Source: a virus
Direction: 5' to 3' (one strand)
Length of the DNA: 64,000 nt
Virus record (IMG/VR): IMGVR_UViG_3300019472_000035
Coordinates: 1-64,000 of that record
A program made the translations under genes and the position numbers. Each line of letters starts with the position of its first letter. The stretch's first letter is position 1. This document shows positions 1,901 through 55,415 of the stretch, piece by piece. The notes beneath the pieces were generated by a model. That model ran no database searches. It was not told the DNA's origin and saw only the letters and a list, made by a program, of their open reading frames with translations.

Positions 1901-2431
1901 TTATAAAGCCATGATGGCGTAAACTTTATTATTCAGTTCCTCGGTTGTAATCCCAAGATAACGCATTGTGATTGCTTCCGATGAATGATTAAAAACTTGC
2001 ATAAGGTATGCAATTGGCACACCCTTGCGATACGCATGGTATCCGAATGTTTTACGCATGGAATGTGTACCGATGTTTTCAAGACCGCATTTAACGGATG
2101 CTGCCTTGATTTTTCTCCATGCTTGGGTGGTCGTAATATGACCATCGCCAGAACGACTTGGGAACAACCAATGTTTGCAACGAGATGCGTACTCACACAA
2201 CATCTCATAAATTTCTTTTGACAATGCAAACCGTTTGAACTTGCCTGTTTTTTGTTCACGCAATTCCATCATTGGTTTGACATCATCTACGGTCAACCCT
2301 ACTAGGTCGCTAATGCGTAGACCAGAGTTGATACCCAATGTGAACAACATTTTGTCACGGTCGTTTGTCAATGCTTCACGCATTTCATTCACCTTATTAA
2401 TATCTCTGATTGGTTCTGTTACTGTTGCCAT
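1901..2431 (-). CDS. Short tyrosine site-specific recombinase (catalytic domain only, 176 aa)
   Basis: Motifs GLRISDL (box I Arg), HSMRKTFG (H-x-x-R) and HSSEAITMRYLG (His and catalytic Tyr), in the order typical of the phage-integrase/XerD C-terminal domain. Confidence 0.75.
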   Translation of the reverse strand: MATVTEPIRDINKVNEMREALTNDRDKMLFTLGINSGLRISDLVGLTVDDVKPMMELREQKTGKFKRFALSKEIYEMLCEYASRCKHWLFPSRSGDGHITTTQAWRKIKAASVKCGLENIGTHSMRKTFGYHAYRKGVPIAYLMQVFNHSSEAITMRYLGITTEELNNKVYAIMAL

Positions 2432-18879: not shown

Positions 18880-21800
18880 ATGGGTAAAGGCGGTGGCAAG
18901 GGCGGTAAAGGTCGTGTAGCAAAATTCATTGGTCTTGCTGCTGGTATTGCCTTTGGTTTTGGTGGTGGTGCTTGGGGGTTCTTAAAAGCGGCATCTGTAT
19001 TTAGTCGTGTAATGTACGGTTTATCCCTTGGTATGTCCATTGGTGGTTTATTCGATAAATCACCAAAGCAATCAACACCAGAATCAACATTCGACTCTAA
19101 GAATAACCAAGTAACATCCGAGGGTACAATCCCAATTGTCTATGGACAAACTAAAGTTGGTGGTCTACAGACATTCCATAAAATGGACGTTGGTGGTAAA
19201 CGCTTGGACAAAGACGTGGTTCTTTGCGAGGGTAAAATCCATGACATCTTCGGTGTTACTGCCAATGGTTATCTAACAAGCGTACAACGCTTGAACGAAA
19301 CAAAACAAACGAAAATACCTGTGTTTGGTATTCGTAATAATAAATATCCAGATGCGAAAATATCTGTTGAAACAGGCGTTGCGGAAAAACGTGGCTTTAT
19401 GGGTCATAAACCAAACGCATCGCAACAATCAATCTATCAAGATAATGTAGACTATGGGTCATTTAACAAGTTCAAAAAGCTGAAATTGACTGCCAATGGT
19501 AAAACTGTATATATCTTCTTAACAGATGATAATACAACGATTGACCTACAGTACTCATTGGCTTGTAATACGTTTGGTAAAATCTATCAAATCATCTTGG
19601 GTGACACATACCTATCCGACTTACAAACCGATGGTTGGGAGTTGGTCAATCCAGTGATTTGTCAAAACTCTCCATCCTGTTTAGATACCTTTGGTGAATC
19701 TCCATGTTATAAACGAGATGTGTACTGTATGACGAACGGTAGTCAAGACGGTAGTAATTCTACGGTTTATACACACCTTGGTGGTAAAGACCAAGATGCT
19801 CCAGACCAATACTTAACAACAGGCGGTTATCCGAATATGGCATACGTTCATGCGGATTTACGCTATTCGGAAAAAATGGGTGCTGGCAATCCAACGGTGA
19901 CTGCTATCGTGCAAGGTATGATTGTATACGATTGGCGTGATAAACAGTATAAATATTCTAAAAATCCTGTTGTATGTCTATATGACTACTTGACAAATAA
20001 AACATACGGTGCTGGTCGGTATGTTACATCAGATATTCTTGACATGGAATCGTTTACCGATGTGGCAAACTATTGTGACGAAGAAATCACATACAATGAC
20101 CCATACGGTGTCACAAAAACAGAACCAAGGTATCAGCTTGATATATGCTTGAACGAAACCAAAACACATCAAGAAAACATTCAATCAATCTTGAACTCAT
20201 TCCTTGGGTTCATTGTGTTTTCAAACAATTCAATCAAACTACGGTGTGAACGATTAGAACAACCTGTGTATGCGTTCAATGATGATAACATCGTGGAAGA
20301 AACCCTCAGTTATAAATCCGCATCTATTGACCAAAGTCCGAACAAGTTTAATTTAACGTACGTAGAACCAGCATTGGATTATACGGCGGTTAAATTAATC
20401 GTTGAAGATGCCACAAATCAACTACCTCCGCCAATCGGCATTGGTAGACCTGTGGAACAAGATATTGATTTCAAGGGTGTTCGCAGACAAACTCAATGTT
20501 TGCGACTTGGGAAGATTGCACGAGATATTATTCGTTTGTGTCCGATTACGGTAACATTCAAAACAGGTCTTATGGCTTCTCACTTGGAAGCTGGCGATAT
20601 TGTAACAATCTCCAAAACATACATTGATGAAGACGGTGTTAAACAAGAGTTATTCACCAACCAACAAGCACGTATCACCGAAATAAAAGAAGAAGACGGT
20701 ACATTTGAAATTACCGCACGACAATACAATCCATCTATCTATGATGATACATTCGGTGCATCTTTAAAGGTATTCGGTACAGTTGGTAACGACAAACCAA
20801 TCAGATTAACACCAGCAACTGTTAAACCTGTTGAGAACATTCAATTCAATCAAATCTACCGTGGTAAAGTCGATGGCTTACCAACGTATGACATCGTGTT
20901 GTCCTTTGATGAACCAGACGACATAGAGTTCCGTTCTGCATCGGTTTACATTCAAACCGTACACAATGGTATGGCTGGTGAATGGAAGAACTATGGTGAA
21001 TCCAAAGGTATCACAACTATTATGGGTCTTAAACGTGGCGACACAATCAACGCACGTATTATACCAAACGATTCCAAAGGTATTGAACATGAGGAATCCA
21101 TGTCTGCTCCATCGTATACTGTGGTTTCCAAGTTTGGTGCACCAGAGATGCCACAGAACTTACGACTTAAGGTTACAGACGAAGCACGTATCACATGGGA
21201 TATAATCAAGAATACCGATATAGACCATTATGAAATTTCAACCACTGGGTTCTTTAACAATGGTGCAGTTGTATCAGTTGACAATGAAGCACCGATTACA
21301 TTAACAATGCGTACTGGCAAGATTTATGTCCGTGGTGTAAACATTGATAATGTCGCTGGTCCAGCGAATTTTGTAACATACGATTATCCAGAATTAAATG
21401 TTCCTCAATTAAATTACATCAAATCACAATCTGGTGCGTTCCAAGTTGTTCTAAGGGATACACCAAAGACAAGTCCACCGATATTAAAAACCGTCTTTAG
21501 AGTCAACGATAAAGACTTTAGAACCGATACCAATGTGTTTACATATGTTGACGACCCAGCGGTATACAATGTGTCTTATGCATATGAAGATTACTTTGGT
21601 ACTGGTGCGTTTTCTAATGGTCAGAGTGCGGTGATTAAACAGAATATCAATCAAGATTTAATCAATCGTGCAACCGCAGCAATCCAAAGTGTTGAACAGA
21701 TGCAAGCAAACATTGACACTATCAATACACGGATTCAAAATGCGGTCACAGAACAAATCCAAAATTCAATCGGTGGTGCAAAATTAGAAATCACCAAAGC

Positions 21801-23883
21801 AGCCGAAGCCATGAAACAACAAATCACGGATGCACAACACCATATGGAATCCACGATTACACAAACGGCAAACGCTTTGGATGCAAAAATTAAAGACATT
21901 GACAACACAGTACAATCACGAGTAACACAGCTTGCAAGTACGATTGAGTCTTCTATTAAGTCTTTATCTGGTGATGAAATTCTAAGTAGAATCAATCAAT
22001 CAAGCGGTGGTACTCAAATTGACGGTAAATTGTTACACGTTACATCTGATTCCGTATTCGACAAAGGCGTTGTAGCGAAGAATATCGAAGCTGGCACAAT
22101 CAGTACTGACAAACTCATGAGTTCTATTCTTGACTTGCAAGAATCTGGTATGCAAATCAAGGGCGGTGGCGTTCGTATTGATGCCAGCGGTATCCGCATG
22201 AGTAATGAAAACGGTTCATTTACTGCATTAACCAAAGATGGCATCAAGTGGTATGACTCTAAAGGTGTTGCCTATAGTGCTATTCAACAAATGGTCTTTG
22301 GGATTGCAAACGATGGCGACCATATCGACTTGAATTGGGATTCAGAACCAATGGTGTTCGTTGTTCCCCAAAAGATGAACTTGGGTCAAAATATGAGTGC
22401 AGCTGACAATTATCTGCAAGGAACAATGGAAACCAAGGCAGTCAATGTGTCTAAAAAAGGCTTTGACATTCACGCACGTATCACCCAATATTGCAACGGT
22501 GAGATGTACTATGGGGGTAGACCTTGGGGGAGAACAAATCTTGATAACTTTGCACCATCAAGATACTCAACAGGCACACTTACTAATCGAGTTTACATCT
22601 ATAGTGAAGCCGATACGTATGTTTCCATAGAGATACCAGAAGTTGGTGTTGACGTATGGACATCCCTAGGAAAACAATACGATAGCGTAAATGTCGAGGG
22701 TGCTGGATGGGAAAATCCACCAGAGAACTCCAAAAAGTGGTTATCACCAATGGCATCTGGCAAAGGCAAAACTGTTTTTACTGGAAGTGGTAGTGGTTCT
22801 ACTTATAGTGGTCATTATGAGTTTCAACAATACAAACAATGGATGATTGACTATGAGAAGATACCAAGAAAAATCATCGCAATTCGTTTACGCAAGGGTC
22901 AAAACGTAATCGCTTGTTCAATTCCATCGTTTGCTATTACGCCAAGCAATCCTTGGTTTAAAATTGCGAACATACCATCGCTCCCAGAGGGAACATACTT
23001 TGGTATTCGTTCTCCAGAGCCTGTACAATGGTTTGCCGTGAATGTGCCAAAAGAAAACTATTTTGTTGCATCACACGCAAACTATAAGACAACTAAGTTT
23101 ACTGGTCGTGGAACATATACGTTTACACCGACTGGCAAACGATTTAAGATTACCATGATTGGTGCATCGGTTGCATCTAAGGGAGAAAGACCACAATCTT
23201 CTGAAACACGAATCGTTGGTAATGGCATTGATTATAAAACATCTGGTTACGCAACCAATTTATCACTCAATAATCAACAACCGTATAAACAATCGTTCCA
23301 TTCTGTGCATGAATCGTCAAAACATAACGAAAAAGGTTCTCTATACTTTATGGCTAATGCTTTCAAGGTCGGTACAGATTCCGTATCTACTTGGGGTGGC
23401 GATGGATTATCCATGCCTTGTTATGTCTTGGCTGGCAACAACGTGTCATTCTTTAATGCAAACTTTACCAATAGACGTAATCTACAAAACAATCCAACAG
23501 AGTTCTTACGTTTCCCAGACGGCAACTACCAAGGACGTGGCGATGTAAATGACGACACGAAAAACCTTGGTGTGTTTGGTGAACTCGTTGGTTGTCCATT
23601 GTTTACATTCACTGGTGGCGGTGGTGGTAATCCCGGCGGTTACGCTCGTGATATGTGGTGGAACATTGAATGGCAGATGGGGTTATCCAAAGCGGTCACA
23701 TATAATGTCAACGTACCAACAGGTGTATCAAATTACACGATTACCATTGGTGCTTGTCCAGATGTTACCGTTGGTAAAGAAATCCATTTCCCATCTGGAC
23801 CGTATGGTGACGATGGTGGCTATATTAGAATCACAAACACACAACCATTTGACGGTGCAGTATTTATTACGGAGGAATTGTAA
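18880..23883 (+). CDS. Host specificity / central tail fibre protein (lambda J-like, 1667 aa)
   Basis: N-terminus MGKGGGKGGKG resembles the lambda J start MGKGSSKG. Huge size immediately after the L-like gene. Confidence 0.8.
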   Translation: MGKGGGKGGKGRVAKFIGLAAGIAFGFGGGAWGFLKAASVFSRVMYGLSLGMSIGGLFDKSPKQSTPESTFDSKNNQVTSEGTIPIVYGQTKVGGLQTFHKMDVGGKRLDKDVVLCEGKIHDIFGVTANGYLTSVQRLNETKQTKIPVFGIRNNKYPDAKISVETGVAEKRGFMGHKPNASQQSIYQDNVDYGSFNKFKKLKLTANGKTVYIFLTDDNTTIDLQYSLACNTFGKIYQIILGDTYLSDLQTDGWELVNPVICQNSPSCLDTFGESPCYKRDVYCMTNGSQDGSNSTVYTHLGGKDQDAPDQYLTTGGYPNMAYVHADLRYSEKMGAGNPTVTAIVQGMIVYDWRDKQYKYSKNPVVCLYDYLTNKTYGAGRYVTSDILDMESFTDVANYCDEEITYNDPYGVTKTEPRYQLDICLNETKTHQENIQSILNSFLGFIVFSNNSIKLRCERLEQPVYAFNDDNIVEETLSYKSASIDQSPNKFNLTYVEPALDYTAVKLIVEDATNQLPPPIGIGRPVEQDIDFKGVRRQTQCLRLGKIARDIIRLCPITVTFKTGLMASHLEAGDIVTISKTYIDEDGVKQELFTNQQARITEIKEEDGTFEITARQYNPSIYDDTFGASLKVFGTVGNDKPIRLTPATVKPVENIQFNQIYRGKVDGLPTYDIVLSFDEPDDIEFRSASVYIQTVHNGMAGEWKNYGESKGITTIMGLKRGDTINARIIPNDSKGIEHEESMSAPSYTVVSKFGAPEMPQNLRLKVTDEARITWDIIKNTDIDHYEISTTGFFNNGAVVSVDNEAPITLTMRTGKIYVRGVNIDNVAGPANFVTYDYPELNVPQLNYIKSQSGAFQVVLRDTPKTSPPILKTVFRVNDKDFRTDTNVFTYVDDPAVYNVSYAYEDYFGTGAFSNGQSAVIKQNINQDLINRATAAIQSVEQMQANIDTINTRIQNAVTEQIQNSIGGAKLEITKAAEAMKQQITDAQHHMESTITQTANALDAKIKDIDNTVQSRVTQLASTIESSIKSLSGDEILSRINQSSGGTQIDGKLLHVTSDSVFDKGVVAKNIEAGTISTDKLMSSILDLQESGMQIKGGGVRIDASGIRMSNENGSFTALTKDGIKWYDSKGVAYSAIQQMVFGIANDGDHIDLNWDSEPMVFVVPQKMNLGQNMSAADNYLQGTMETKAVNVSKKGFDIHARITQYCNGEMYYGGRPWGRTNLDNFAPSRYSTGTLTNRVYIYSEADTYVSIEIPEVGVDVWTSLGKQYDSVNVEGAGWENPPENSKKWLSPMASGKGKTVFTGSGSGSTYSGHYEFQQYKQWMIDYEKIPRKIIAIRLRKGQNVIACSIPSFAITPSNPWFKIANIPSLPEGTYFGIRSPEPVQWFAVNVPKENYFVASHANYKTTKFTGRGTYTFTPTGKRFKITMIGASVASKGERPQSSETRIVGNGIDYKTSGYATNLSLNNQQPYKQSFHSVHESSKHNEKGSLYFMANAFKVGTDSVSTWGGDGLSMPCYVLAGNNVSFFNANFTNRRNLQNNPTEFLRFPDGNYQGRGDVNDDTKNLGVFGELVGCPLFTFTGGGGGNPGGYARDMWWNIEWQMGLSKAVTYNVNVPTGVSNYTITIGACPDVTVGKEIHFPSGPYGDDGGYIRITNTQPFDGAVFITEEL

Positions 23884-24548: not shown

Positions 24549-24872
24549 ATGAAAGATTGGATTCGTGTTGAAGACGAGATTATGCACGTTGGAGCAGATT
24601 GGAATCGGTTGTATTCCGTTGATGAATCAATTGATTTAACCGATGCAACTGCCGTGTGTAAAATCCGTGATTTGAAAGATAATGTTTTACTACAGGCAAC
24701 GTGTACTGTGTATGAACACGGCGTAGTCGTATGGTTTCCATATGAAGATACATTAACACTTAATCGTCAAATCAAGAGGGGCAAATACGATGTTTTCATT
24801 CAAAAAGATTCTAAATCGTGGAAACTTGTCATGGGTGAAATCGAAATTATCCACGACATTTCCATGCATTAA
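24549..24872 (+). CDS. Hypothetical protein (tail fibre assembly?)
   Basis: AGGAGG RBS; position only. Confidence 0.4.
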   Translation: MKDWIRVEDEIMHVGADWNRLYSVDESIDLTDATAVCKIRDLKDNVLLQATCTVYEHGVVVWFPYEDTLTLNRQIKRGKYDVFIQKDSKSWKLVMGEIEIIHDISMH

Positions 24873-24897
24873 TTTTAAACCAAAGGAGCATACAATC

Positions 24898-25980
24898 ATG
24901 CCAAACGAAGAAGCAATCCAAAAAATGTCTATTGTTGACCCAATTCAAGTCAACGTCAACATTCCAAACTTTGAGGGAAAACCCGGGAGAGATGGTACAG
25001 ATGGTCGAGATGGTGACGATGCATACCGTATTGCCGTCCGTAACGGTTTCTTGGGTACAGAAAAAGAATGGTTACTAACACTAAAGGGTCAAGATGGTAA
25101 ATCCGCATCTGCACCTACGGCACGACAAACGTTGTTACAAAACAATGTATGGTGCGAAGATGATACCGTGGATTCCGTGTTTACTGCCATTATTGGCAAC
25201 TGGGGAAAACCATTGCCACGTACAGATTATCGACCAATAGCTTTACAGTCCACAGTATTGGTTGGTTCACCAAATATAACATTTAGTGGCGAGCCTCATT
25301 TCAAAGTAAAGATTGACAATAAAACCGTTGAATTTAACTCTACTGGACTTGCTGATGTGACTGTTTCAAGTTCTAATACTGGTGATTCCTATGTGGCACA
25401 ATACTTTGGATATATTGACAATCATCTCTCGGATATTAATGTTGCTTTTGGCAATTTAAGTTCTATATTCAGTAAAGGCTCTCTAGTTGAAACAACAGAA
25501 CTTAGTGTAAGTTCAGATAGTCCAGTTAGAGTTTCAATTTATGATAACAAGGTTGTCGAGTTAGTTCATACAGGTAGCAACCTTGATTTGCAACCAACAC
25601 TAGATGCGAATAAAATCAAAACAATCAAAGATTATGTGTTAACAAAAATTAGCGACATAGACACATTAATCATTGACGATGTACTTACTAGCCAAATGTG
25701 GATACCTTTTGCTGCATCCGCTCTTAATGAAATTGCACGAGGTATTGGACATGGCGTAAATCTTAAGATTGATTTATCTTATTATAAAGAGCAAGGATAT
25801 GCACGTGATGAAGAAAGAATATTCACCTCTGTAGAAACAAGCAATAGATACTCTGCTCCTTATATTGGTAAAGCATTGCAAATTGGTACATCAAATGTAA
25901 TGATTTTTAAACCTACAGGCTTTAATATCATCTACCGATTTACTCCAAATACAATCCTTGAATCTCAAGACTCTCTATAA
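24898..25980 (+). CDS. Collagen-like-repeat tail fibre protein
   Basis: AAGGAG RBS then ATG at 24898. G-x-y repeats GKPGRDGTDGRDGDDA ... GQDGKS near the N-terminus; followed by a terminator. Confidence 0.65.
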   Translation: MPNEEAIQKMSIVDPIQVNVNIPNFEGKPGRDGTDGRDGDDAYRIAVRNGFLGTEKEWLLTLKGQDGKSASAPTARQTLLQNNVWCEDDTVDSVFTAIIGNWGKPLPRTDYRPIALQSTVLVGSPNITFSGEPHFKVKIDNKTVEFNSTGLADVTVSSSNTGDSYVAQYFGYIDNHLSDINVAFGNLSSIFSKGSLVETTELSVSSDSPVRVSIYDNKVVELVHTGSNLDLQPTLDANKIKTIKDYVLTKISDIDTLIIDDVLTSQMWIPFAASALNEIARGIGHGVNLKIDLSYYKEQGYARDEERIFTSVETSNRYSAPYIGKALQIGTSNVMIFKPTGFNIIYRFTPNTILESQDSL

Positions 25981-26319: not shown

Positions 26320-26696
26320 TACCAATGAATAACATTATTGATTCAATCAAGGGTTATTACACCAAAGTACGAACCGCCCATATTAACATCAAATCACTAC
26401 AGTTTGTAAAGTTTGTGATTACAACCTCGTTCATCCCAATATTTATGTACTTGGGTGTTTGGTTGTACGCAATCTATGCAATGCACGTTGGTTTAAACGT
26501 AACAATTCTGGTTTCTCTATTGTCGGAATTACGATTATTCGTATCCGTAATCTTCTCAACACAGACTGTTGCTGGCGTACTTGCGTATGGCGTGGCTTTA
26601 ATTGATTCAGATGGCAATGGAGAATCCGATGAATTAGATGCTAAAGCACACGCACAATCCACTTCTAGTATTAACACCACAGGAGATACAAAATGA
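26316..26696 (+). CDS. Holin/antiholin-like membrane protein (2-3 TM)
   Basis: Hydrophobic stretches FVITTSFIPIFMYLGVWLYAIYAMHVGLNVTILVSLL; immediately upstream of the endolysin. Confidence 0.5.
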   Translation: MIPMNNIIDSIKGYYTKVRTAHINIKSLQFVKFVITTSFIPIFMYLGVWLYAIYAMHVGLNVTILVSLLSELRLFVSVIFSTQTVAGVLAYGVALIDSDGNGESDELDAKAHAQSTSSINTTGDTK

Positions 26697-27271
26697 GAAC
26701 CATCGAAAAAGACGAACTAATGAGTATGGCTACAAGTGCAAGGGGTTATATCGACCATATATACTTGCATTGGTCTGCTGGTCACTACAACCAAAGCCAT
26801 ACCGATAAATACCACATTTGTATTGACAAAGACGGTAAAATGTATACCGATGTTGATTTACTAACGGAATACCGTGACCATACGTATATGCGAAACAGTC
26901 GTGCCATCGGTATCACTTTGAACGGTTGCTGGGATGCCATCAATCCGACAAACATGGGTACAGAACCACCGACTGAACAACAAATTTACGCCCTCAGCTG
27001 GCTGGTAGCATTATTGTGTATTCAAATCGGTATTCCATTGGACATCCAACACGTAATGACTCATGCGGAAGCCGCAGATAATAAAGATGGTATGGACTTG
27101 TGTTACAACGACCCAACGCCATACCCAAACAATACTTACGGTCCAGATTCCACGTGTGAACGATGGGATTTATGGGTTTTACACGAGAATGACCAACCGT
27201 GGTCTGGTGGCGACAACATTCGTGGTAACGCACGATACATCGCACATAATGAATGGGGTATTGACATATGA
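26693..27271 (+). CDS. Endolysin, N-acetylmuramoyl-L-alanine amidase (amidase_2 / PGRP family), no cell-wall binding domain
   Basis: HIYLHWSAGHY...SHTDKYHICIDKDG...AIGITLNGCWD resemble amidase_2/T7-lysozyme-like zinc-amidase signatures. Confidence 0.8.
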   Translation: MRTIEKDELMSMATSARGYIDHIYLHWSAGHYNQSHTDKYHICIDKDGKMYTDVDLLTEYRDHTYMRNSRAIGITLNGCWDAINPTNMGTEPPTEQQIYALSWLVALLCIQIGIPLDIQHVMTHAEAADNKDGMDLCYNDPTPYPNNTYGPDSTCERWDLWVLHENDQPWSGGDNIRGNARYIAHNEWGIDI

Positions 27272-28160: not shown

Positions 28161-31100
28161 TTATTTCTTTAATTCCAATGGTTTCATCTTGGTGATACAA
28201 TCGCCACGTAATTGGATGTAATACCCAACACCAGCTTTCATTTCAACCAAGTATGAAGACCACATAACATACTTGTTCCCCAGATGGTCAAACACATATG
28301 CCATTGGTTTACCAGTCTTGGTTGTTCTTTGTTTGAAATCAGAAACGATAATCGCCTTGACATCACGACCGTTTGCCAATTCTGTGTTATATTCCATTAA
28401 TGGGTTCTCAAAAGAACACCCAAGGTATTTATACCTGAGCGAAGCTAGAGGGGTCTTAGCGGTCAAATCTGGCGATTCTAGGAGGGTTATGGAGTCATAC
28501 TTAGATGTCCATTCTTGGATTTTCTTTTGTATGTTTGCTAATTTCTTTTCCATGGATTGTAATTGCTTTGGTGTTGCCGTTGGTGATTCTGTTTGTATCA
28601 ACTGTTGGTGGTCACGCAATTTATGATTCCATTCGTCAATCTTATTTTGTGCGTTCTTGCGGTCACTATCGAATGACTTATACTTGGGAATTAATGCCAT
28701 GAGTTCATTTGTTTCCCCCAAGAAGTCTAATGCACCACTACCAACTAAACCCTCTAGTTGCAACTTAGTGTATTTACTAAAGATGGCATCTATTGTATAC
28801 TCTTGTGGTTTCTCAATCTTGTTGATGCCTTTGATGTACGCAAGACCTACACGAATGGCATTACCATCGACTGACCACTGGCGGTCACTATGGCGTAAAT
28901 CTGGTGGTAATATCTCGATTCCCTTGCGTTTAATCTCTTGGATATACGGCAAGATTTTCTCTTGGTTGCCATCTTCGGAGTTGATGGTTGCAACATAAAA
29001 TTCCAACGGATAATGGGTCTTTAAGTATGCCGTTATGTATGCCATGTAGCCGTATGATTGACTGTGAGCCTTGTTAAATCCATAACTTGCCGCTGCAATA
29101 ATCATATCCAAGATTTGTTTCGCCACATCTTTATCTGTTCCGTTCGCAACCGCACGGTCAACAAATTCTGCCGTAATCTCTTGCATTAAATCGTGGTCTT
29201 TTTTACCAACCGCACGTCTTACGGTATCGGCTTCCGCCATTGAATACCCAGCGATAATCTGACATACACGCATGATTTGTTCTTGGAATACCATAATCCC
29301 ATATGTTTCACCCAATGGTTCTTCTAATCGTTCATCCAAGTATTCAAACGGTTTGCCTTGTCTGCGTTCGATATACTCATCCAACATACCTGTTAAAATA
29401 CACGCTGGTCGGTACAATGCTACTACGGCGATTAAATCAACAAAATTCTTTGGTGCAATACTTTTGAGAGTTCTAATCATTCCCGGTGATTTCATTTGAA
29501 ACACACCAAGCGTGTCACCCTTACATAACAAATCCAACGTAGGCTTATCATCCCAAGGTAATTTTGCTAAGTCAAGACTATCTTTGACACCAGCCATCGT
29601 TACACAATCATTGATTACATCCAAGGTTCTAAGACCAAGAATATCCTCTTTTAGAAAACCCATTGATTCTAAATGTTTAAAGTTTGTAGATGCCACAAAT
29701 GTTTCTTCTTTTGTTTTAGAATCTTTTTGCATTTCTAAAGAACAATACTTGGTAATATCTTGGTTTGACACAATGACTGCCGATGCATGTTTCCCAAAGC
29801 CAGTCATGATACCAACCAGTTTCTTAGCGAGTTCAAATAGCTCTGGATGCTTACCATCGTTTACATGGTCTAACTTAGCATACTCTAGGTCGTTATCGTG
29901 ATAATCTTCATCATCATCAAATGAAACATCCTTAATTTTCTTTGAGTATGCATCTGCAATGGTATGGTCTACACCTAGACATCGTGCGGCTTCTTTTAAA
30001 GCACCAGATGCTTTCATGTATGAAAATGTACGACATTGGTATACATATTTATATTTTTCTTCAAGATATTGAATGACTTCTCCACGTCTTACCTTAGAAC
30101 AATCGTTGTCAACGTCTGGGGGTGATACACGATTTGGGTTTGCAAACCGTTCAAAGTACAGATTGTTCGTAATAGCATCCAAAGATGTAATATCGAGTAA
30201 ATATGCACATTCGCATCCTCCGACCGAACCACGCCCATGACCAACTGGGATGTCACGCTTACGACAAGCATCGAGAATATCTTTGGTTATCAACAGATAA
30301 TCCATATACCCAACTTGTTCCAGAATATTAATCTCGTGTGGAACACGTTCGTCAACACGTTTTTTAAACTCTGGTGTGACCTTGCCGATAATCTTTTGTT
30401 TATATCCGTCACGCAAAGCCTGTAAAAACACAGGTTTTACATCCCCATCTTTAACATACTTTGGGTATACATCAAGGTCAAAATCAACCTGTGCGTTACA
30501 TTTGTCAAAAATAACATTGGTATTCTTAACCATCGTTTCAACCATATCAATACCGAATTGCGGATACAGACGGTCAAACACTTGTGCTTTCGATTGGATA
30601 AAGAAGTCGTTTGAACCATAATATTGGTCTTCATCATCATCTTGTGAACGACCACGGAACGCTTTATGTAAAGCATAGTCTTCCTCATGAACATAATGGC
30701 TATCGCAAGCTGCAATCAATGGTACATCATATTTTGCACCCATTTCTGCAACCATTGCATTAAAACGCTTTTGGTCTTCATGTTGATACGTATGGATTTC
30801 AAAATACAAGTCGTCACCGAAGATGTCTTTGAACTGCGGAATTAAAGACTCACGGTTATCACCTTTTAGCCATCCACCCATGCAAGCAGATGTACAGATT
30901 AAACCCTCGGAGTACTGCTTGATTATATCAAGGTCAATTCTTGACTTGTAATAATAATGTCGATGTGCTTCCGTTGTCAATCTAAACAGGTTTTCAAGAC
31001 CAACTTGATTCTTCGCAAGAAACAATATATGTGAATACGATTTATCTTTGATGGTCACATCATACGTATAGTACAACTCTGACCCCATCAACAGTTTCAA

Positions 31101-31307
31101 ATTCGTGTTGTGTTTCTTGTTATATTTCTGTAGATGCACATATGTGTCAATCAATCCAGAGCAACCGTTATGGTCTGTCAATGCAAAACCACGTTGCCCC
31201 AATTCGTGTACACGCTGGATGATGCCATCTACGGAACTGATTGCATCTTTCATCCCATAGTTTGAAAACTGTGAGTGTAGATGCGTATGAATAAAGTTAT
31301 CCGCCAT
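28161..31307 (-). CDS. dnaE: DNA polymerase III alpha-type replicative polymerase (DnaE family, PHP domain N-terminus), 1048 aa
   Basis: N-terminal PHP motifs HTHLHSQFS...DGII...ALTDHNGCSG. Later motifs GHGRGSVGGCECAYLLDITSLD and ...FDLDV... follow the usual DnaE domain order. Only large gene on the minus strand. Confidence 0.85.
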   Translation of the reverse strand: MADNFIHTHLHSQFSNYGMKDAISSVDGIIQRVHELGQRGFALTDHNGCSGLIDTYVHLQKYNKKHNTNLKLLMGSELYYTYDVTIKDKSYSHILFLAKNQVGLENLFRLTTEAHRHYYYKSRIDLDIIKQYSEGLICTSACMGGWLKGDNRESLIPQFKDIFGDDLYFEIHTYQHEDQKRFNAMVAEMGAKYDVPLIAACDSHYVHEEDYALHKAFRGRSQDDDEDQYYGSNDFFIQSKAQVFDRLYPQFGIDMVETMVKNTNVIFDKCNAQVDFDLDVYPKYVKDGDVKPVFLQALRDGYKQKIIGKVTPEFKKRVDERVPHEINILEQVGYMDYLLITKDILDACRKRDIPVGHGRGSVGGCECAYLLDITSLDAITNNLYFERFANPNRVSPPDVDNDCSKVRRGEVIQYLEEKYKYVYQCRTFSYMKASGALKEAARCLGVDHTIADAYSKKIKDVSFDDDEDYHDNDLEYAKLDHVNDGKHPELFELAKKLVGIMTGFGKHASAVIVSNQDITKYCSLEMQKDSKTKEETFVASTNFKHLESMGFLKEDILGLRTLDVINDCVTMAGVKDSLDLAKLPWDDKPTLDLLCKGDTLGVFQMKSPGMIRTLKSIAPKNFVDLIAVVALYRPACILTGMLDEYIERRQGKPFEYLDERLEEPLGETYGIMVFQEQIMRVCQIIAGYSMAEADTVRRAVGKKDHDLMQEITAEFVDRAVANGTDKDVAKQILDMIIAAASYGFNKAHSQSYGYMAYITAYLKTHYPLEFYVATINSEDGNQEKILPYIQEIKRKGIEILPPDLRHSDRQWSVDGNAIRVGLAYIKGINKIEKPQEYTIDAIFSKYTKLQLEGLVGSGALDFLGETNELMALIPKYKSFDSDRKNAQNKIDEWNHKLRDHQQLIQTESPTATPKQLQSMEKKLANIQKKIQEWTSKYDSITLLESPDLTAKTPLASLRYKYLGCSFENPLMEYNTELANGRDVKAIIVSDFKQRTTKTGKPMAYVFDHLGNKYVMWSSYLVEMKAGVGYYIQLRGDCITKMKPLELKK

Positions 31308-33332: not shown

Positions 33333-33971
33333 ATGGATTCATTTATTCGACTACAACTGACAACGGCAACGATTGTCAGACATAATCTAATACATCTGTT
33401 GGAGTTTATACGGATAAACCATATCAGTTCAATTCAGAAAACGGAAGATGGCTGGCTGGTATTGGAAAACGATAAAAACGCATGGACACGTAGGGCAACT
33501 GATTATACGTTCATTGGTATTAATGATGTTCTTCCAGATGGTGTTATATCGGTTGAAAACTTTTACCAAAATAGATATGAGTTCTTAGACAAGATATTTA
33601 CAGTCAACGAAGATATATCCCAAGCGATATACACTTTGTATGATGCTTTAATCAAGCTGGCGAATATCTACCAAGAGCCATACAATCCAAAGGATACATT
33701 GTTCTTGTATGACCATGCATCCATCTATAGTCTTGACAATAGCGGAGAACAACACTTTGTTACACACATTGAGAATGTACCAAAATACATTCCATTCAAA
33801 CAAGTGTGTCAAGACAAAGATATTATCTCGGTAAGAACGGCAGTCAGTCAACTGTATGATTTGAAATGTTGTATTGACCCATCTATTGACTATGAGATGC
33901 AACAACAGTTAAGAACACTACAGGAGGAATACCCAGATGAATACAATTTCAACCTTAAAGTACAAGATTGA
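33333..33971 (+). CDS. Hypothetical protein
   Basis: 212-aa ORF; no motif recognised. Confidence 0.5.
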   Translation: MDSFIRLQLTTATIVRHNLIHLLEFIRINHISSIQKTEDGWLVLENDKNAWTRRATDYTFIGINDVLPDGVISVENFYQNRYEFLDKIFTVNEDISQAIYTLYDALIKLANIYQEPYNPKDTLFLYDHASIYSLDNSGEQHFVTHIENVPKYIPFKQVCQDKDIISVRTAVSQLYDLKCCIDPSIDYEMQQQLRTLQEEYPDEYNFNLKVQD

Positions 33972-34851
33972 CTTACAGGAGTTAGTCGAGGAATATACCA
34001 CATTATCACGAAACGGTGGTAAAATTCCAAGGGGTACTTGTCCAATATGTCACGGTGACAATCCAACAGAGTTTTGTATACTTGGTGACAGATACTACTG
34101 TCATAAATGTGGTTCATCTGGTGATGCAATCGGTTTTTATTCCGAAGTAGAGGGTTTACCGTTCTATCAAGCGGTGGAAGCCTTGGCAGAAAAATATGAG
34201 GTATCAACAGACGACCCTGTGTATCAAAAACAGAAAAGCATCGTTGGTCAGAATACGAAAGTTGCTATCAAGTATCATAAAGCCGTTGATGCCGTTCGTG
34301 AATACATGAATGTCAAGCGAGGTATTAACGATGATACGTTGGAAGATTTTCTGATTGGTTATGACAAGGGTGGTTTCTTGGGTGTACAATCGTCTGGTAT
34401 CGTGATTCCAATTCAAGATGCCTATGGTCGTATTGTTGGGTTTTCCAAGAGAAGATTGGAAGAAACCAATGAACCAAAATACAAGAATACCAAAGAAGAC
34501 GATGTGTTTGTCAAACGACAACTGTTGTTTAATTACCATCGTGCGGTTAAAATGCTGCATCCGAATGGTGTGCTTCATGTTGCCGAGGGGTATCTTGATG
34601 TCATGTCTGCACACCAACAGGGTATTCCATGCGTTGGGTATCTTGGTGGACGATTGACAAAAGACCAGATTGGTTTACTCTGGGAGTTACAAAAGCGATA
34701 CAACGGAGATATTACGTTTGCATTGGCGGTTGATAATCCAGAGTGTGATGCGACTGGTCGTAAAGCATTGTTAAAAACAAGGGAAGACATTAATAAATAC
34801 GCACCAGATTTAAACGTGCGTGTGGTCAAGTATCCGAAAAATGATGAGTAA
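33937..34851 (+). CDS. dnaG: DNA primase (CHC2 zinc finger + TOPRIM, DnaG-like)
   Basis: CPICHGDNPTEFCILGDRYYCHKCGSSGD zinc finger, then TOPRIM-like VAEGYLDVMS...AVDNPECDATG. Confidence 0.8.
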   Translation: MNTISTLKYKIDLQELVEEYTTLSRNGGKIPRGTCPICHGDNPTEFCILGDRYYCHKCGSSGDAIGFYSEVEGLPFYQAVEALAEKYEVSTDDPVYQKQKSIVGQNTKVAIKYHKAVDAVREYMNVKRGINDDTLEDFLIGYDKGGFLGVQSSGIVIPIQDAYGRIVGFSKRRLEETNEPKYKNTKEDDVFVKRQLLFNYHRAVKMLHPNGVLHVAEGYLDVMSAHQQGIPCVGYLGGRLTKDQIGLLWELQKRYNGDITFALAVDNPECDATGRKALLKTREDINKYAPDLNVRVVKYPKNDE

Positions 34852-48638: not shown

Positions 48639-49432
48639 ACATCGCAGAACATTCTTTAAACGCAAACAAATTAGATATGCGTGTGGATGCAGACCGTGCA
48701 TATGTTGCCGATGTATCCGATATACACGTTGGGAACATTTATCACAACCGACAAAAGTTCGAGGAGTTTCTATCAAAAGTACAATCCATTGATAATCTGT
48801 ATTTGATTATCGGTGGTGATTCTACGGATAATGCAACCACAAGTTCCGCATCATCTGTATTTGAACAATCGGAACACGGTGGCGACCAAGTGTTGACCGC
48901 TTATCATCTGTTAGAACCGATTAAAGACCGTATCTTGTTTTGCCGTAGCGGTAATCACGGATATGAACGTGCGTTGAAGCACAATAAATTAATCCCAGAG
49001 CAGATGTTAGCAGAGTTGTTGGGTGTTCCGTTTTATCATGGTATGGCAAGTGTATTCTTTAATGTCAACAAGAATTTGTACGTTATTGGTACATGGCACA
49101 ACGCAAAGAAACCAACGGCAATGGAATGGTTACATACCGATATTACATTCTATGAACACTTGCATAAAACCAATTGGGAGAAAACTCATGTGGCAACACC
49201 AAACCGTATTGCCAAGGCTTGGTCAATGATGGAGCATTATGATATTCAATCTGGTTCATTCCTTGGTTGGGGCGGTTATTCCGCAGACAAGGGTTATCGT
49301 CCATTGGATTGTGGAACATCCATCGTAGAGTTATCTGGGGAAAGAAACAAGAAGTCAATTCGTGTTCATTCCGACATTGACCATGTATTGGAACTACAGG
49401 AATTGCGAAAGTGTGTACAAGATGCCACTTAA
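48602..49432 (+). CDS. Calcineurin-like metallophosphoesterase
   Basis: DVSDIHVG, GGDSTD and SGNHG motifs in the canonical order. The likely true start is TTG at 48635 after GGAGGAA. Confidence 0.7.
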   Translation: MHTIKRYGGTHLNIAEHSLNANKLDMRVDADRAYVADVSDIHVGNIYHNRQKFEEFLSKVQSIDNLYLIIGGDSTDNATTSSASSVFEQSEHGGDQVLTAYHLLEPIKDRILFCRSGNHGYERALKHNKLIPEQMLAELLGVPFYHGMASVFFNVNKNLYVIGTWHNAKKPTAMEWLHTDITFYEHLHKTNWEKTHVATPNRIAKAWSMMEHYDIQSGSFLGWGGYSADKGYRPLDCGTSIVELSGERNKKSIRVHSDIDHVLELQELRKCVQDAT

Positions 49433-49655
49433 GGGAACACGCAAGAAAACAACAAAGAAACCAACCAAGAATCAAACCAAGGTTGTTAAGCCAAAGGCTG
49501 CACCAAAACGTAAACGCAAGCCACCAAAGCCAAAGTCACCACTTGATGCCATTCATAAGAAATGTCGTGAATGTTGTTGTGGCACACTTGCGGAAGTACA
49601 GGCTTGTGAAATTGACGATTGTGCATTATGGCATTACAGATTGACGGAAGATTAA
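49422..49655 (+). CDS. Small basic Cys-rich protein (Lys/Pro-rich N-terminus, CRECCCG...C..C zinc ribbon)
   Basis: ATG at 49422; 77 aa. Confidence 0.5.
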   Translation: MPLKGTRKKTTKKPTKNQTKVVKPKAAPKRKRKPPKPKSPLDAIHKKCRECCCGTLAEVQACEIDDCALWHYRLTED

Positions 49656-49672
49656 TTTCTTCCGTCTTTTTT
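49636..49672 (+). terminator. Terminator ACGGAAGA ttaatt TCTTCCGT + CTTTTTTTATTTTG
   Basis: 8-bp stem overlapping the stop codon, followed by a T-run. Confidence 0.8.
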
Positions 49673-49750
49673 TATTTTGTTATTGACATAAATGTAATCA
49701 TGTGATATTCTTATATCAGAACAACAAATGATTAAACATCGGAGGTTCAC

Positions 49751-49885
49751 ATGAAAAGATGCTACAAGATACCACATGGGTTTTATTATATGGATGTCTT
49801 ACAACCGTATTTTGAACAGGGGTGGTCTTTAACAAAAGTTATACGTATCGGTCAAGATATGTCGGTTATTATTATGCACCCATAG
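49751..49885 (+). CDS. Small hypothetical protein (44 aa, below the ORF-track cutoff)
   Basis: GGAGGTTCACATG RBS then ATG at 49751. Confidence 0.45.
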   Translation: MKRCYKIPHGFYYMDVLQPYFEQGWSLTKVIRIGQDMSVIIMHP

Positions 49886-49895
49886 GGAGGAAATT

Positions 49896-50348
49896 ATGTT
49901 ACAATCAAAATATCTAACGGAAGATGGTTTAAAGTTCTTTTTAAAAAGGCTTCATGCAAAAGGATTTCGATTTTTGTTTTATGACCCAACGATAAATATT
50001 TATATTGCATCTGAACAAGAACCATGCTTTGAAGATGGCAAATATATGCATTGTTATGGAAATAAGAAAATTGCTATTGTGAGTCAATTGGAAACGGCTA
50101 TTATAGCAGAGTTATTAGAACAATATTTATATATTGAGATTGAAAAATACGTTGATTGTGTTGACTGGGAAAATGTTCCTGTGGATACAAAAATAATTGT
50201 GTCACATTCACCAAACAGTCCAGACTATTGTCGCTATTTTGCAGAATACAAAGATGGAAAAGTATATGCTTGGGGTTATGGTGCAACGTCATGGAGTAGC
50301 GATGTTAAATCAAAAAGCTGGTGGGAACACGCCAAACTGGTGAAATAA
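49896..50348 (+). CDS. Hypothetical protein
   Basis: GGAGGAAATTATG start. Confidence 0.55.
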   Translation: MLQSKYLTEDGLKFFLKRLHAKGFRFLFYDPTINIYIASEQEPCFEDGKYMHCYGNKKIAIVSQLETAIIAELLEQYLYIEIEKYVDCVDWENVPVDTKIIVSHSPNSPDYCRYFAEYKDGKVYAWGYGATSWSSDVKSKSWWEHAKLVK

Positions 50349-50349
50349 C

Positions 50350-50634
50350 ATGGCATACAAGGGATTTGGCGGTGGTAGAACACTACCAGACAAACGTGAG
50401 TATTTTTTAGAATATGGCGATGGGTTTGATTCTGTTTTAGACCGATGTCAAACAACAGTCGGTTGTCGTAAGTGTCACACAAAACCTGTTGCCATTGTCG
50501 AACATAAACGGTCAAAAGATTCACAATGGATTTATCTTGCGTGTCCAAAGCATCCCAAGAATAGAACCTATGTGAATCTGGACTATGATATCTTGTTTAA
50601 ATCTTGGGAATTACTACAGAGGAGGAAATTATGA
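50350..50634 (+). CDS. Hypothetical protein with a Cys4 zinc-ribbon-like motif (C..GC.KC ... C.KH)
   Basis: 94-aa ORF. Confidence 0.5.
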   Translation: MAYKGFGGGRTLPDKREYFLEYGDGFDSVLDRCQTTVGCRKCHTKPVAIVEHKRSKDSQWIYLACPKHPKNRTYVNLDYDILFKSWELLQRRKL

Positions 50635-50843
50635 AACGAAAAGCACAAACCAAACGATACATCGAGGACGACATTCTACGGATGATACGATTGGGTTCAG
50701 TTGTATTATTGCTTGGGTCTTTCATTCGATTGTTTTGGTTCAATGATTCTGACTGGTTCGCAGCAATGGTTATATCAATCATGTCAATCACATTGCTACC
50801 AACTAAGTTAGACCACCAACAGGAGGACGAAGATGAGATTTAG
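50631..50843 (+). CDS. Small membrane protein
   Basis: GGAGGAAATTATG start; hydrophobic VVLLLGSFIRLFWF. Confidence 0.5.
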   Translation: MKRKAQTKRYIEDDILRMIRLGSVVLLLGSFIRLFWFNDSDWFAAMVISIMSITLLPTKLDHQQEDEDEI

Positions 50844-51087
50844 CACGGCTTTTGAACATATGTTGAATGGTAAAGCCATTCGTAGATACCACTGGAAACC
50901 AGAGTCTTGTTTGCGACTCAAACGAGGGAAAATATATGTGTGTACATCAACGGAACACAAGTTACTACAAGCACTTAATGCTTCTGCTATTATGGCTTCC
51001 GATTGGCAAGTCCTTGGCGAAGAAACATACGCTAAAAAAGATGAAAGCATTATGCAATTCTTTGAAACTTTAAATCATACATTGTAA
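50833..51087 (+). CDS. Hypothetical protein
   Basis: CAGGAGGACGAAGATG start. Confidence 0.5.
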   Translation: MRFSTAFEHMLNGKAIRRYHWKPESCLRLKRGKIYVCTSTEHKLLQALNASAIMASDWQVLGEETYAKKDESIMQFFETLNHTL

Positions 51088-51105
51088 ACGAAAGTGAGAA
51101 AACAA

Positions 51106-52296
51106 ATGAACAACACAACAAAAACAACAATTTTATCCGCAGTATTCGCAATGGCAACAATGGGTGCGTTCGCAAATCCAGTTGCGTTTGGCTCTTTAGA
51201 ACCCTCTGCCGTAAACCCAACCGTTAATGGTTATAATTCTGTTGCCGTTGGTGCAAACACAAGTATTAATGGTACAAATACAATCGTTGTTGGTCGAGAT
51301 AATACGGTTAATGGTGACGATAATATCATCCTAGGGGGTGGCAACGGTACAATCACGGCAAACCAAACGACTGTACTTGGGTATAATAATTACGCTGGCA
51401 ATCATCAAGAACAAACCATTGTTGGTGCAAACAACACGTTGGATGCACAAGGTGCAATCTCCGTTGGTACACACAATGTTGTCCGTGGTATGGATGCCGT
51501 TGTAATTGGCAACAACGCATCTGCCCCAGTACAAAATTCTATTGCGGTTGGTACAAATTCTCAAACGTATGAACCTAAGGGGTTTGGTCAAATGGACATC
51601 AACGGAACAACACACGTATTCGCTGGTGAAAACCCTAATTCTACAGTTAGCTTCGGTTCTAAAAAGTCTGATACCTATAGCCACATAGATAATTATAGCC
51701 GACAATTGCAGAATGTATCTGCTGGAAGAATCCAAGCAGATTCTTTAGATGCAGTCAATGGTTCTCAATTGTATGCAGCCATTGATGAAATCAATACAAA
51801 CGGTACACGTATTACCAATCTCACCACACAGGTAAACACAATTAATGGTCGTGTGGCAACCAATACCGCAGACATCCGTGCAAACGAACACGCAATTCTT
51901 GACCATGAACAACGGATTACCACATTGGAAAGTCATGGTCAACAACTGTTGGGTGACATTGATAATAAAATCAATCAATTGGAACGTGGCACAAACCACG
52001 CTATTGCATCCGTATCTGCCCTAAGTGCATTACATTGGAATGGTTTCGATGCACATAATAAATTTTCTCTAAGTGCTGGCTTTGGTCATTACAAAAATGC
52101 AAACGCTGGTGCATTGGGTGCGTTCTATGCACCGAATGAAAACATCATGTTTTACGTTGGTCAATCTTTTGGTTCTGCTAAGGTAACAAACGCATCCGTT
52201 AATTTCAAAATCGGTAAAACAACGAATGTCAAACGTGATGAATTAAAAGAACTAAAAGAACGTGTTGAAATGTTGGAAAATCTATTGACGAAGTAA
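51106..52296 (+). CDS. YadA-like trimeric autotransporter adhesin-like protein with a signal peptide, head repeats, neck, coiled-coil stalk and YadA-type anchor, plus a 26-aa C-terminal extension
   Basis: Signal MNNTTKTTILSAVFAMATMGAFA. Repeats of N.VGANTSINGTN..VVG type. Neck DAVNGSQLYAAIDEIN. Anchor AIASVSALSAL...FSLSAGFGHYKNANAGALGAFYA...VNFKI. Confidence 0.65.
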   Translation: MNNTTKTTILSAVFAMATMGAFANPVAFGSLEPSAVNPTVNGYNSVAVGANTSINGTNTIVVGRDNTVNGDDNIILGGGNGTITANQTTVLGYNNYAGNHQEQTIVGANNTLDAQGAISVGTHNVVRGMDAVVIGNNASAPVQNSIAVGTNSQTYEPKGFGQMDINGTTHVFAGENPNSTVSFGSKKSDTYSHIDNYSRQLQNVSAGRIQADSLDAVNGSQLYAAIDEINTNGTRITNLTTQVNTINGRVATNTADIRANEHAILDHEQRITTLESHGQQLLGDIDNKINQLERGTNHAIASVSALSALHWNGFDAHNKFSLSAGFGHYKNANAGALGAFYAPNENIMFYVGQSFGSAKVTNASVNFKIGKTTNVKRDELKELKERVEMLENLLTK

Positions 52297-52336
52297 TATA
52301 CATGGGCGGTGTTAAACCGCCCTATAAGGAGATATA

Positions 52337-54749: not shown

Positions 54750-55415
54750 ATGCAAGTAACATTACAGAACTATACACCGCTTGATACGGCTGTACACGCA
54801 ATGGGTCAATGCTATGGAAAAACCCTTGGGGTGGATGCATTGGTGCGAGCCGTTCATAGCGGTCATTTATCACTATTGGAACACACGCTGGTAACATTCG
54901 ATATTGAAATGTCGCAAAAATGCCTTGCACAGATTACACGACACAGACATTTGTCTTTCACGGTCAAATCTACACGTGGCACAGACTTTGCGGATTCTAC
55001 ATGGTTTGATTCAACCGAACATCCAGAAATTACCAAAGACATGGGTCAACTCATGAATAAATTAATCGAAAATCAAATTCTGGAATACAGACGGTTGGTT
55101 GATGCTGGTGTGCCGTACCAAGTTGCAGCCTATGTGTTACCATTGGCAACCAATGTAACAATGACCGTAAGTGGTTCGCTTAGAACATGGATGGAGTATT
55201 TACCCAAGCGGTTATGCAAACGTGCATCTACGGAACACCAACAAGTGGCACGAGAGATTTACCACAAATTAAATGCGGTTTATCCATCGTTGGTAAATTT
55301 GGAGATGCTTGGGATGTGTAGCGGTTGTAAAGAAACCTCATGTGATTTTACAACACATAAGAAACAACCGAAAACACCTGTTGTTGTTGAATTACGGAAA
55401 TCGGAGGATAAATAA
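54750..55415 (+). CDS. thyX: Flavin-dependent thymidylate synthase ThyX
   Basis: ThyX signature ITRHRHLSFTVKSTR (RHR-x7-S). Confidence 0.8.
   Translation: MQVTLQNYTPLDTAVHAMGQCYGKTLGVDALVRAVHSGHLSLLEHTLVTFDIEMSQKCLAQITRHRHLSFTVKSTRGTDFADSTWFDSTEHPEITKDMGQLMNKLIENQILEYRRLVDAGVPYQVAAYVLPLATNVTMTVSGSLRTWMEYLPKRLCKRASTEHQQVAREIYHKLNAVYPSLVNLEMLGMCSGCKETSCDFTTHKKQPKTPVVVELRKSEDK

Follow-up and report, generated by a model that had tools for sequence, protein, structure and literature searches.

The locus examined here raises the question of why a phage should carry a gene for a trimeric autotransporter adhesin (TAA) in which the membrane anchor is followed by further residues instead of ending the protein. 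The gene occupies positions 51106..52296 on the plus strand of a stretch of 64,000 nucleotides (positions 1 to 64,000 of IMG/VR virus record IMGVR_UViG_3300019472_000035, hereafter the window). Our analysis showed that it encodes a complete type Vc TAA of the Negativicutes kind, with every testable hallmark of TAAs being present. Taken as a whole, the reading that we consider probable is that of a Negativicutes-type TAA, maintained as a conserved phage gene, exported and surface-displayed, and, with lower confidence, altering the adhesion of the infected cell.

The gene is complete and comprises 396 codons plus the stop (ATG at 51106, stop at 52294-52296), as supported by the list of open reading frames (ORFs), the translation and Pfam. 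An independent gene caller placed the start at the same codon in identical metagenome contigs, which measure about 68.6 kb. By inspection, residues 1-23 (51106..51174, plus strand) make up a Sec-type signal peptide with predicted cleavage after AFA. The N-terminus (MNNTTKTTILSAVFAMATMGAFA, then NP after the cleavage site) displayed the n/h/c layout, i.e. a lysine-containing n-region, a hydrophobic core and an A-x-A motif (A-F-A), without a lipobox cysteine at the cleavage site. This segment was found in all phage homologues and was modelled as a short helix with a low predicted local distance difference test score (pLDDT). All other parts are encoded on the same strand. A YadA-like left-handed beta-roll, with repeats of about 14 residues, and a connector form the passenger head (residues 24-195, 51175..51690; Pfam, PDB, AlphaFold2 and Foldseek). 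The neck region (residues 196-218, 51691..51759) was delimited by Pfam YadA_stalk and by motif position, and holds the start of the DAVNGSQL motif (residues 215-222). The coiled-coil stalk and pore-traversing helix (residues 219-307, 51760..52026) correspond to a single model helix with a strong heptad phase, 16-17 hydrophobic residues occupying the a/d registers versus 4-7 in the others. The YadA-type membrane anchor with its linkers (residues 308-369, 52027..52212) contains four beta-strands between residues 320 and 367, and was recognized by Pfam, by alignment to 2lme and 9gh4 and by Foldseek. The protein ends with a post-anchor, putatively periplasmic coiled coil (residues 370-396, 52213..52293, GKTTNVKRDELKELKERVEMLENLLTK), as judged from the model helix, the spacing of leucines and valines, and conservation.

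The succession of signal peptide, beta-roll head, DAVNGSQL neck, stalk and four-strand YadA anchor had been proposed in the initial annotation and was borne out, Pfam, AlphaFold2 and Foldseek being in agreement. Pfam YadA_anchor (PF03895) matched residues 315-368 (E-value 5.7e-9; 36.4 bits versus a curated cut-off of 22.7), YadA_stalk residues 200-244 and YadA_head residues 128-152, the head and stalk families (PF05658 and PF05662) likewise exceeding their curated cut-offs. A PDB sequence search retrieved TAAs exclusively (F. nucleatum CbpF, UspA1, AtaA, SadA, the YadA anchor and Hia), CbpF (9gh4) being the top match for the anchor region. In the phage collection, a nucleotide search gave no match, and tblastn gave one generic Hep_Hag match on a Salmonella scaffold and no Eib prophage match.

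The AlphaFold2 monomer model, built from a 30-sequence alignment (mean pLDDT 83), displayed a beta-roll at residues 46-183 (strands with pLDDT above 90), one 89-residue helix (219-307), anchor strands at 320-329, 332-344, 347-355 and 361-367, then a low-confidence linker and a terminal helix (375-395). Foldseek matched the head to the AtaA Ylhead, UspA1, YadA and BoaA, and the anchor to Hia 2gr7, YadA 2lme and AtaA 9vnj (target TM-scores 0.70-0.85). In the last anchor strand, residues 362-367 (NASVNF) aligned with NASFNI of YadA (2lme), two residues short of the YadA chain end. The V-N-F-K-I type last-strand motif is therefore retained, but lies inside the phage protein. By analogy with established TAAs, a trimeric 12-strand barrel with a surface-displayed passenger would be expected.

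The non-C-terminal anchor and its coiled-coil extension, as initially described, were real; the length had to be corrected from 26 to 27 residues, as counted from the position of the YadA C-terminus in the 2lme alignment, for a definition of a post-barrel domain that asks for more than 10 (Dorison et al. 2026, bioRxiv 10.64898/2026.01.22.700529). The extension is a helical coiled coil of less than 100 residues (model helix 375-395), with leucines and valines at 3-4-3-4 spacing. A tail was present in 120/120 cluster representatives (81-97% identity), where substitutions were conservative (L/V/I, K/Q/E, D/E) and the heptad core was kept. Likewise, 39 IMG/VR loci carried an anchor plus coiled coil at the end of the gene, save two copies, one cut short by a premature stop and the other shortened internally. 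All 19 near-full-length copies from the 68-kb phage group kept the window-type tail, and more distant IMG/VR loci displayed other coiled-coil tails. The ratio of non-synonymous to synonymous substitution rates (dN/dS; Nei-Gojobori, 20 sequences) was 0.11 for the extension, 0.065 for the anchor, the segment under the tightest constraint, 0.07 for the neck, 0.16 for the head and 0.35 for the stalk. These data indicate that the post-anchor residues are a real coiled coil under selection.

An origin of the extension in a frameshift or faulty assembly, or of the gene in host DNA erroneously joined to a phage contig, is practically negligible as an explanation, and nothing in its favour was found. 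The frameshift, which the initial annotation had itself named as a result that would overturn it, is excluded by the recurrence of the same tail across 120 independent clusters and the phage group's IMG/VR loci, by its heptad-preserving substitutions and by its dN/dS of 0.11. Mis-assembly was ruled out because several independent contigs of about 68.6 kb carry the identical gene with the same phage genes on either side.

The two damaged copies among the 39 loci (L101, 3300045988_088110, and L118, 3300045988_077276) have a premature stop after residue 161 in one case and 253 residues in the other. They could represent occasional loss or sequencing error.

The extension was compared with TAAs of the presumed host lineage. 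Residues 270-396 served as query for an exhaustive HMMER search of 1.84 billion representatives, and the best 150 of the 2453 matches obtained were inspected. Post-anchor residues occurred in 150/150 of these, and tails of 5 residues or fewer in none. In 65 the tail was a coiled coil only (21-100 residues) and in 84 a coiled coil followed by more than 100 residues, the remaining one being a truncated fragment with 14 residues. Among the 84 long tails, all those sampled displayed SLH-like motifs after the coiled coil (e.g. FPDVPENHWAYEYV). Alignments of the listed matches mostly reached into the phage tail region. Cluster records of the ten best distant matches carried no taxon names. When the anchor-plus-tail alignment was scanned over one genome per species (185,579 species), 428 relatives were found; the best 80 of them belonged nearly all to Veillonella, with some from Megasphaera and Dialister, at 38-49% identity. 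By search ranking, the phage anchor grouped with those of Negativicutes, the nearest being from Veillonellaceae, and here too the alignments ran into the tail.

Periplasmic coiled coils located after the barrel, with or without SLH domains, are the rule in TAAs of Negativicutes, Synergistia and Synechococcus, and occur in 62% of those of Fusobacteriia (PMC7549365; bioRxiv 10.64898/2026.01.22.700529). Deletion of the coiled coil from V. parvula VtaA, VtaE and VtaF led to degradation and loss of function, and the authors suggested that such periplasmic domains compensate for a reduced BAM complex (bioRxiv 10.64898/2026.01.22.700529). Since TAA anchors have the end of their fourth strand at the periplasmic face (same reference), the phage tail would be periplasmic as well; by analogy, it would also be needed for protein stability. 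The initial annotation had considered the architecture atypical, on the grounds that autotransporter barrels need a terminal aromatic residue for BAM recognition. This view was not upheld: all 150 closest anchors are tailed, the literature describes tails as the rule, and the last-strand motif is kept internally. The extension corresponds to the periplasmic domain of nearly all Negativicutes TAAs, which is critical for stability in VtaA, VtaE and VtaF; it is therefore a host-lineage adaptation, ordinary for the host clade and not an anomaly. The protein displayed each testable feature of a terrabacterial/Negativicutes TAA with a short periplasmic domain.

Among characterized systems, V. parvula VtaA, VtaE and VtaF resemble the phage TAA in having a signal peptide, a YadA-like passenger, a YadA anchor and a post-barrel coiled coil (Bechon et al. 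2020, PMC7549365; bioRxiv 10.64898/2026.01.22.700529). They differ in being chromosomal and about 3000 residues long, compared with 396 for the phage-encoded protein, in carrying an extended signal peptide instead of a plain one of 23 residues, and in the size of the periplasmic segment, 45-63 residues having been deleted in the Vta experiments versus a domain of 27 residues, at the short end, in the phage. F. nucleatum CbpF is also small, with a beta-roll head, and about 48 residues come after its predicted barrel (378-431), so that it has a post-barrel tail too; it differs by its phylum, its chromosomal location and its ligands, CEACAM1 and CEACAM5 (9gh4, 9gh5; PMC12012533). In the cryo-EM maps of CbpF neither barrel nor tail could be resolved (PMC12012533), so that no solved structure shows such a tail. 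YadA (Yersinia), UspA1 (Moraxella) and AtaA (Acinetobacter) match the phage protein in head, neck, stalk and anchor folds, and their last-strand NASxN[FI] motif aligns, but the barrel ends these proteins, whereas 27 residues lie beyond it in the phage TAA.

A further parallel is found in the Eib proteins of E. coli. Their anchors are C-terminal, of proteobacterial type and not known to carry a periplasmic domain, unlike that of the phage TAA, and eib genes are expressed from the prophage as moron-like genes. EibA, EibC, EibD, EibE and EibG are, like the window TAA, small and phage-carried, and the location of eib genes on prophages of temperate phages gives a precedent for phages moving complete type Vc adhesins (Sandt et al. 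2002, via PMC8065619). The resemblance to EibD (2xqh) was a generic fold match (E-value 3.8e-4, 17% identity) that points to no specific Eib relationship; with this match and the lack of any Eib prophage among the tblastn results, membership of the Eib family was rejected. The window gene further distinguished itself from eib genes by its presence in every family contig checked, its embedding in an operon, and the fact that its phage was never seen integrated.

The TAA gene was present in 16/16 IMG/VR contigs of the phage family recovered by means of the neighbouring exonuclease gene, and an anchor-profile scan of IMG/VR added three further family contigs, of which two are full-length and one measures 55.6 kb. 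The gene is represented by more than 120 protein clusters at 90% identity, from contigs of 60-73 kb; the phage group is widespread and human-associated. In total, the anchor-profile scan gave at least 564 anchor-plus-tail relatives in IMG/VR viral contigs, many of them on contigs of 30-42 kb, and TAAs of this type seem to be frequent in phages or prophages. Protein lengths were 361, 389, 396 and 431 residues. Stalks differed by 7 or 35 residues with the heptad register being kept (51796-52020 in the window; P0083, P0088 and L094).

Heads were far more divergent than their surroundings in a sister phage, 3300014290_000001 (L130/L103). Its DNA is about 90% identical to the window over 44001-51192 and again from 51702 on. 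Between these positions (51193-51701) there was no DNA alignment at E-value <= 1e-10, residues 30-199 (the head) being unrelated in sequence. At the protein level its head is 32% identical, versus 93% for anchor plus tail. The breakpoints are sharp and fall at the borders between signal peptide and head and between head and neck; the head thus appears to be exchanged as a cassette. Two mosaic tail modules were also observed among phages otherwise 90-99% identical, namely the C-terminus of the J protein (about 21280-23883) and the segment 25150-25980. In some relatives no match to the J protein was detectable beyond about residue 800, and a 396-residue tail protein (24790-25980) displayed 40-50% identity in its C-terminus versus 93-99% in its N-terminus. 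Both C-termini are likely host-range cassettes. When TAA head type was compared with these two variable modules, no co-variation was found. A phage with the type-B head (32% identity) shares the whole 8.5-kb tail-fibre region with several type-A-head phages at 90-92%, a type-A head (95% identity) was found with a different J C-terminus, and the C-terminus of the 24790-25980 protein varies among phages with the same head. These comparisons indicate that head cassettes are swapped independently of tail-fibre modules.

A long block of co-directional genes for replication and nucleotide metabolism includes the TAA gene, with dUTPase, exonuclease and ThyX as its neighbours. Its initial placement far from the tail genes was confirmed, the latter being located about 25 kb upstream, and the early region initially proposed is plausible from the neighbouring genes. 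A purine-rich, Shine-Dalgarno-like sequence (GAAAGTGAG, 51090..51098, plus strand) is found 7 nt before the ATG, and only 18 nt separate the upstream stop (51085-51087) from the ATG. Co-transcription with the upstream genes was inferred because this gap is too small for a separate promoter. In two temperate relatives (L108, L071), the TAA gene overlaps at its stop codon with the start of the gene that follows. Scanning around the TAA gene in the window and in two temperate relatives revealed neither promoters nor terminators above shuffled expectation. The TAA gene is embedded in early-type operons both in the window and in temperate Veillonella prophages, and is not a free-standing moron.

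The gene directly upstream (50833-51087, plus strand) encodes an 84-residue Tad2-like protein (Thoeris anti-defence 2; Pfam E-value 6.7e-6, 27 bits versus a cut-off of 25), which makes it a candidate anti-defence gene adjoining the adhesin. Two genes upstream, a 70-residue ORF (50631-50843, plus strand) encodes a small, very hydrophobic product (LGSVVLLLGSFIRLFWF...AAMVISIMSITLL), probably a membrane protein. Further upstream, region 49643-49711 contains a strong terminator-like hairpin with a T-run (49643-49666) and then a promoter-like TTGACA, 17 nt, TATTCT arrangement with TG (49683-49711), which was the best plus-strand promoter-like site upstream of the TAA gene in the scanned region; the TAA-containing transcription unit may start there. 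On the other side, a GC-rich hairpin with a perfect 7-bp stem (GGGCGGTGTTAAACCGCCC, 52304..52322) begins 8 nt past the stop. It has no T-run on the plus strand and was flagged by the scan on the minus strand only; the Shine-Dalgarno sequence and ATG (52337) of the next gene lie directly 3' of it. This hairpin may be an mRNA-stabilising or attenuating structure.

The window represents a siphovirus-like genome. It encodes the large terminase (3235-4920), the portal (4908-6224), a 1650-residue ORF between head and tail-fibre genes (12181-17133) that is a tape-measure candidate by size and position only, a J-like central fibre (18880-23883), the endolysin (26693-27271), DNA polymerase (28161-31307, minus strand), primase (33937-34851), helicase (40764-41921), three tRNAs (Ser-GCT, Thr-TGT and Ser-TGA; 42826-43300), dNMP kinase (44906-45580), dUTPase (47150-47650), exonuclease (48602-49432) and ThyX (54750-55415).

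The carrier phage, of about 68 kb, most likely infects Veillonella. Its GC content in the window is about 38-39%, versus 39.8% in Veillonellaceae loci. Endolysin relatives bearing a genus name all came from Negativicutes (Propionispora, Thermosinus, Sporomusa), the other named matches being unclassified Firmicutes/Bacillota metagenome-assembled genomes (MAGs). More distant phage-like contigs in Veillonella MAGs (L001, L002) share other window genes and encode TAAs 42-48% identical over their full length. A homologous prophage early module was found in an 850-kb V. parvula MAG scaffold (L071; NZ_JAWFZJ010000001.1, 521588-527866), in the order CI-like, Cro-like, a 472-residue TAA with a head 55% identical to that of the window, and then replication genes.

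In the proposed mechanism, the TAA would be made inside the infected cell from the co-directional block described above and exported by the Sec pathway by means of its 23-residue signal peptide. BamA would then assemble three four-strand anchors into a 12-strand barrel, the stalk would thread the barrel pore and the small beta-roll head would be displayed at the cell surface. The 27 post-strand residues would stay in the periplasm as a short trimeric coiled coil stabilising the protein. Finally, through the displayed head the infected cell would attach differently to host surfaces, partner species or other cells, or its surface would be coated. Sec export, assembly by BamA, surface display and a periplasmic three-helix tail are what analogy with known TAAs predicts; altered adhesion of the infected cell (in temperate relatives, the lysogenic cell) is proposed with lower confidence. 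Action on the phage's own receptor is unlikely because head cassettes are swapped independently of tail-fibre modules.

Several points weigh against this reading. The choice of adhesion over exclusion rests on a negative co-variation result, in which the phage's receptor-binding protein is represented by candidates only. The signal peptide was called by eye, the tail helix has a pLDDT of about 67 with the linker (371-379) below 50, and the AlphaFold2 prediction is that of a monomer only. Early timing was deduced from neighbouring genes only, the host assignment of the 68-kb phage is indirect, and a short tyrosine recombinase leaves its lifestyle ambiguous.

The main competitor for the role of the protein, superinfection exclusion or progeny protection, can be entertained tentatively. 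An early TAA would here coat or mask the outer membrane against the same phage, against loss of progeny on debris, or against competitors, which is analogous in purpose to the T5 Llp or Cor proteins. It would fit the position of the gene among early-type genes next to a Tad2-like anti-defence gene, its place after the CI/Cro/Xis switch in temperate relatives, and a diversification of the surface-exposed head as expected from an arms race. In addition, a gene present in 16/16 family contigs of a phage never seen integrated needs to be of benefit in lytic growth. Masking of the phage's own receptor would yet predict coupling between head type and receptor-binding modules, and is weakened because head type tracks neither of the two variable tail modules. 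An Llp/Cor-type receptor-masking lipoprotein was rejected on this ground and for lack of a cysteine at the cleavage site, the TAA having no lipobox, unlike Llp and Cor. YadA-like heads act as adhesins and are not known to be receptor blockers, which also counts against exclusion; in the form of general surface shielding, exclusion is possible. A spanin-like role of the periplasmic coil was likewise discarded, the endolysin gene being far away and a diversifying surface head being pointless for a spanin. Also to be considered, if doubtful, is that infected cells are made to adhere differently by the phage in lytic growth, so that cells glued to neighbouring Veillonella, partner streptococci or host surfaces would burst near new hosts. 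If true, the adhesin would serve transmission, and neither lysogenic conversion nor exclusion.

Lysogenic conversion, in which expression from the prophage of a moron-like adhesin would give the lysogen adhesive or serum/immune-evasion properties as with Eib TAAs, is unlikely for the window gene. Prophage-encoded Eib TAAs are established (PMC8065619), and TAAs about 50% identical occur in temperate phages of about 40 kb, after integrase, CI-like, Cro-like and excisionase genes and before Erf or replication genes (PHROG scan for L108 and L113, ORF inspection for L109), as well as in the V. parvula prophage module on the 850-kb scaffold. The window itself contains a tyrosine recombinase gene (1901-2431, minus strand; 176 residues) with a complete Phage_integrase catalytic domain (phrog_216, E-value 1e-53). 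This recombinase is, on the other hand, limited to the catalytic domain, without an N-terminal DNA-binding domain, and may be either a resolvase or what is left of an integrase. No repressor emerged when the small ORFs at either end of the window were scanned with PHROGs. The phage was considered never to have been seen integrated because all contigs with the window's TAA or a close endolysin are at most 73 kb, none being embedded in host DNA, and because the 185,579 species-representative genomes contained no TAA copy above 49% identity. Neither a promoter nor a terminator specific to the gene rose above chance, and within rightward early operons the gene is translationally coupled or tightly packed. 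Conversion is thus possible for temperate relatives and less likely for the 68-kb phage. Highly improbable, finally, is a virion component, in which TAA-like Hep_Hag repeats would make up a tail fibre or a decoration protein lacking a genuine membrane anchor. Phage fibres do include beta-rolls and coiled coils that resemble those of TAAs, and the best PHROG match of the protein was phrog_17426, a 'tail / adhesin' family. Yet, the signal peptide is conserved, the four-strand anchor was supported by Pfam and by fold and is the part under the strongest constraint, the tail module lies about 25 kb away, and a Sec-exported, BAM-inserted protein cannot join virion assembly in the cytoplasm. The anchorless Hep_Hag tail fibre that the initial annotation had set as its refuting case was rejected for the presence and conservation of signal peptide and anchor; the same conservation and purifying selection (anchor dN/dS 0.065) disfavour the phage-displayed decoration and the repurposed TAA fold that it had also suggested.

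The puzzle of the non-C-terminal anchor is already solved in the literature, and such an anchor marks a Negativicutes-type TAA; the tail therefore also points to the host of the phage. A literature search for phage-encoded TAAs in Veillonella revealed no mention of them, and the word 'phage' is absent from both key TAA papers (PMC7549365; bioRxiv 10.64898/2026.01.22.700529). The phage-biology side, with conservation across the family contigs checked, an early-type operon and shuffled heads, seems moderately interesting. If adhesion is indeed reprogrammed in lytic growth, this would be a general trait of Negativicutes phages without mention in the literature searched. At 396 residues with a 27-residue periplasmic domain, phage TAAs would be compact natural test cases for the need of a periplasmic coiled coil. 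Small, complete adhesins with shuffled heads are, on the evidence of our results, routine cargo of Veillonella phages and prophages. In oral and gut biofilms, Veillonella serves as a bridging species, with aggregation and co-aggregation being driven by its TAAs, so that adhesins carried by phages could modify the structure of these communities.

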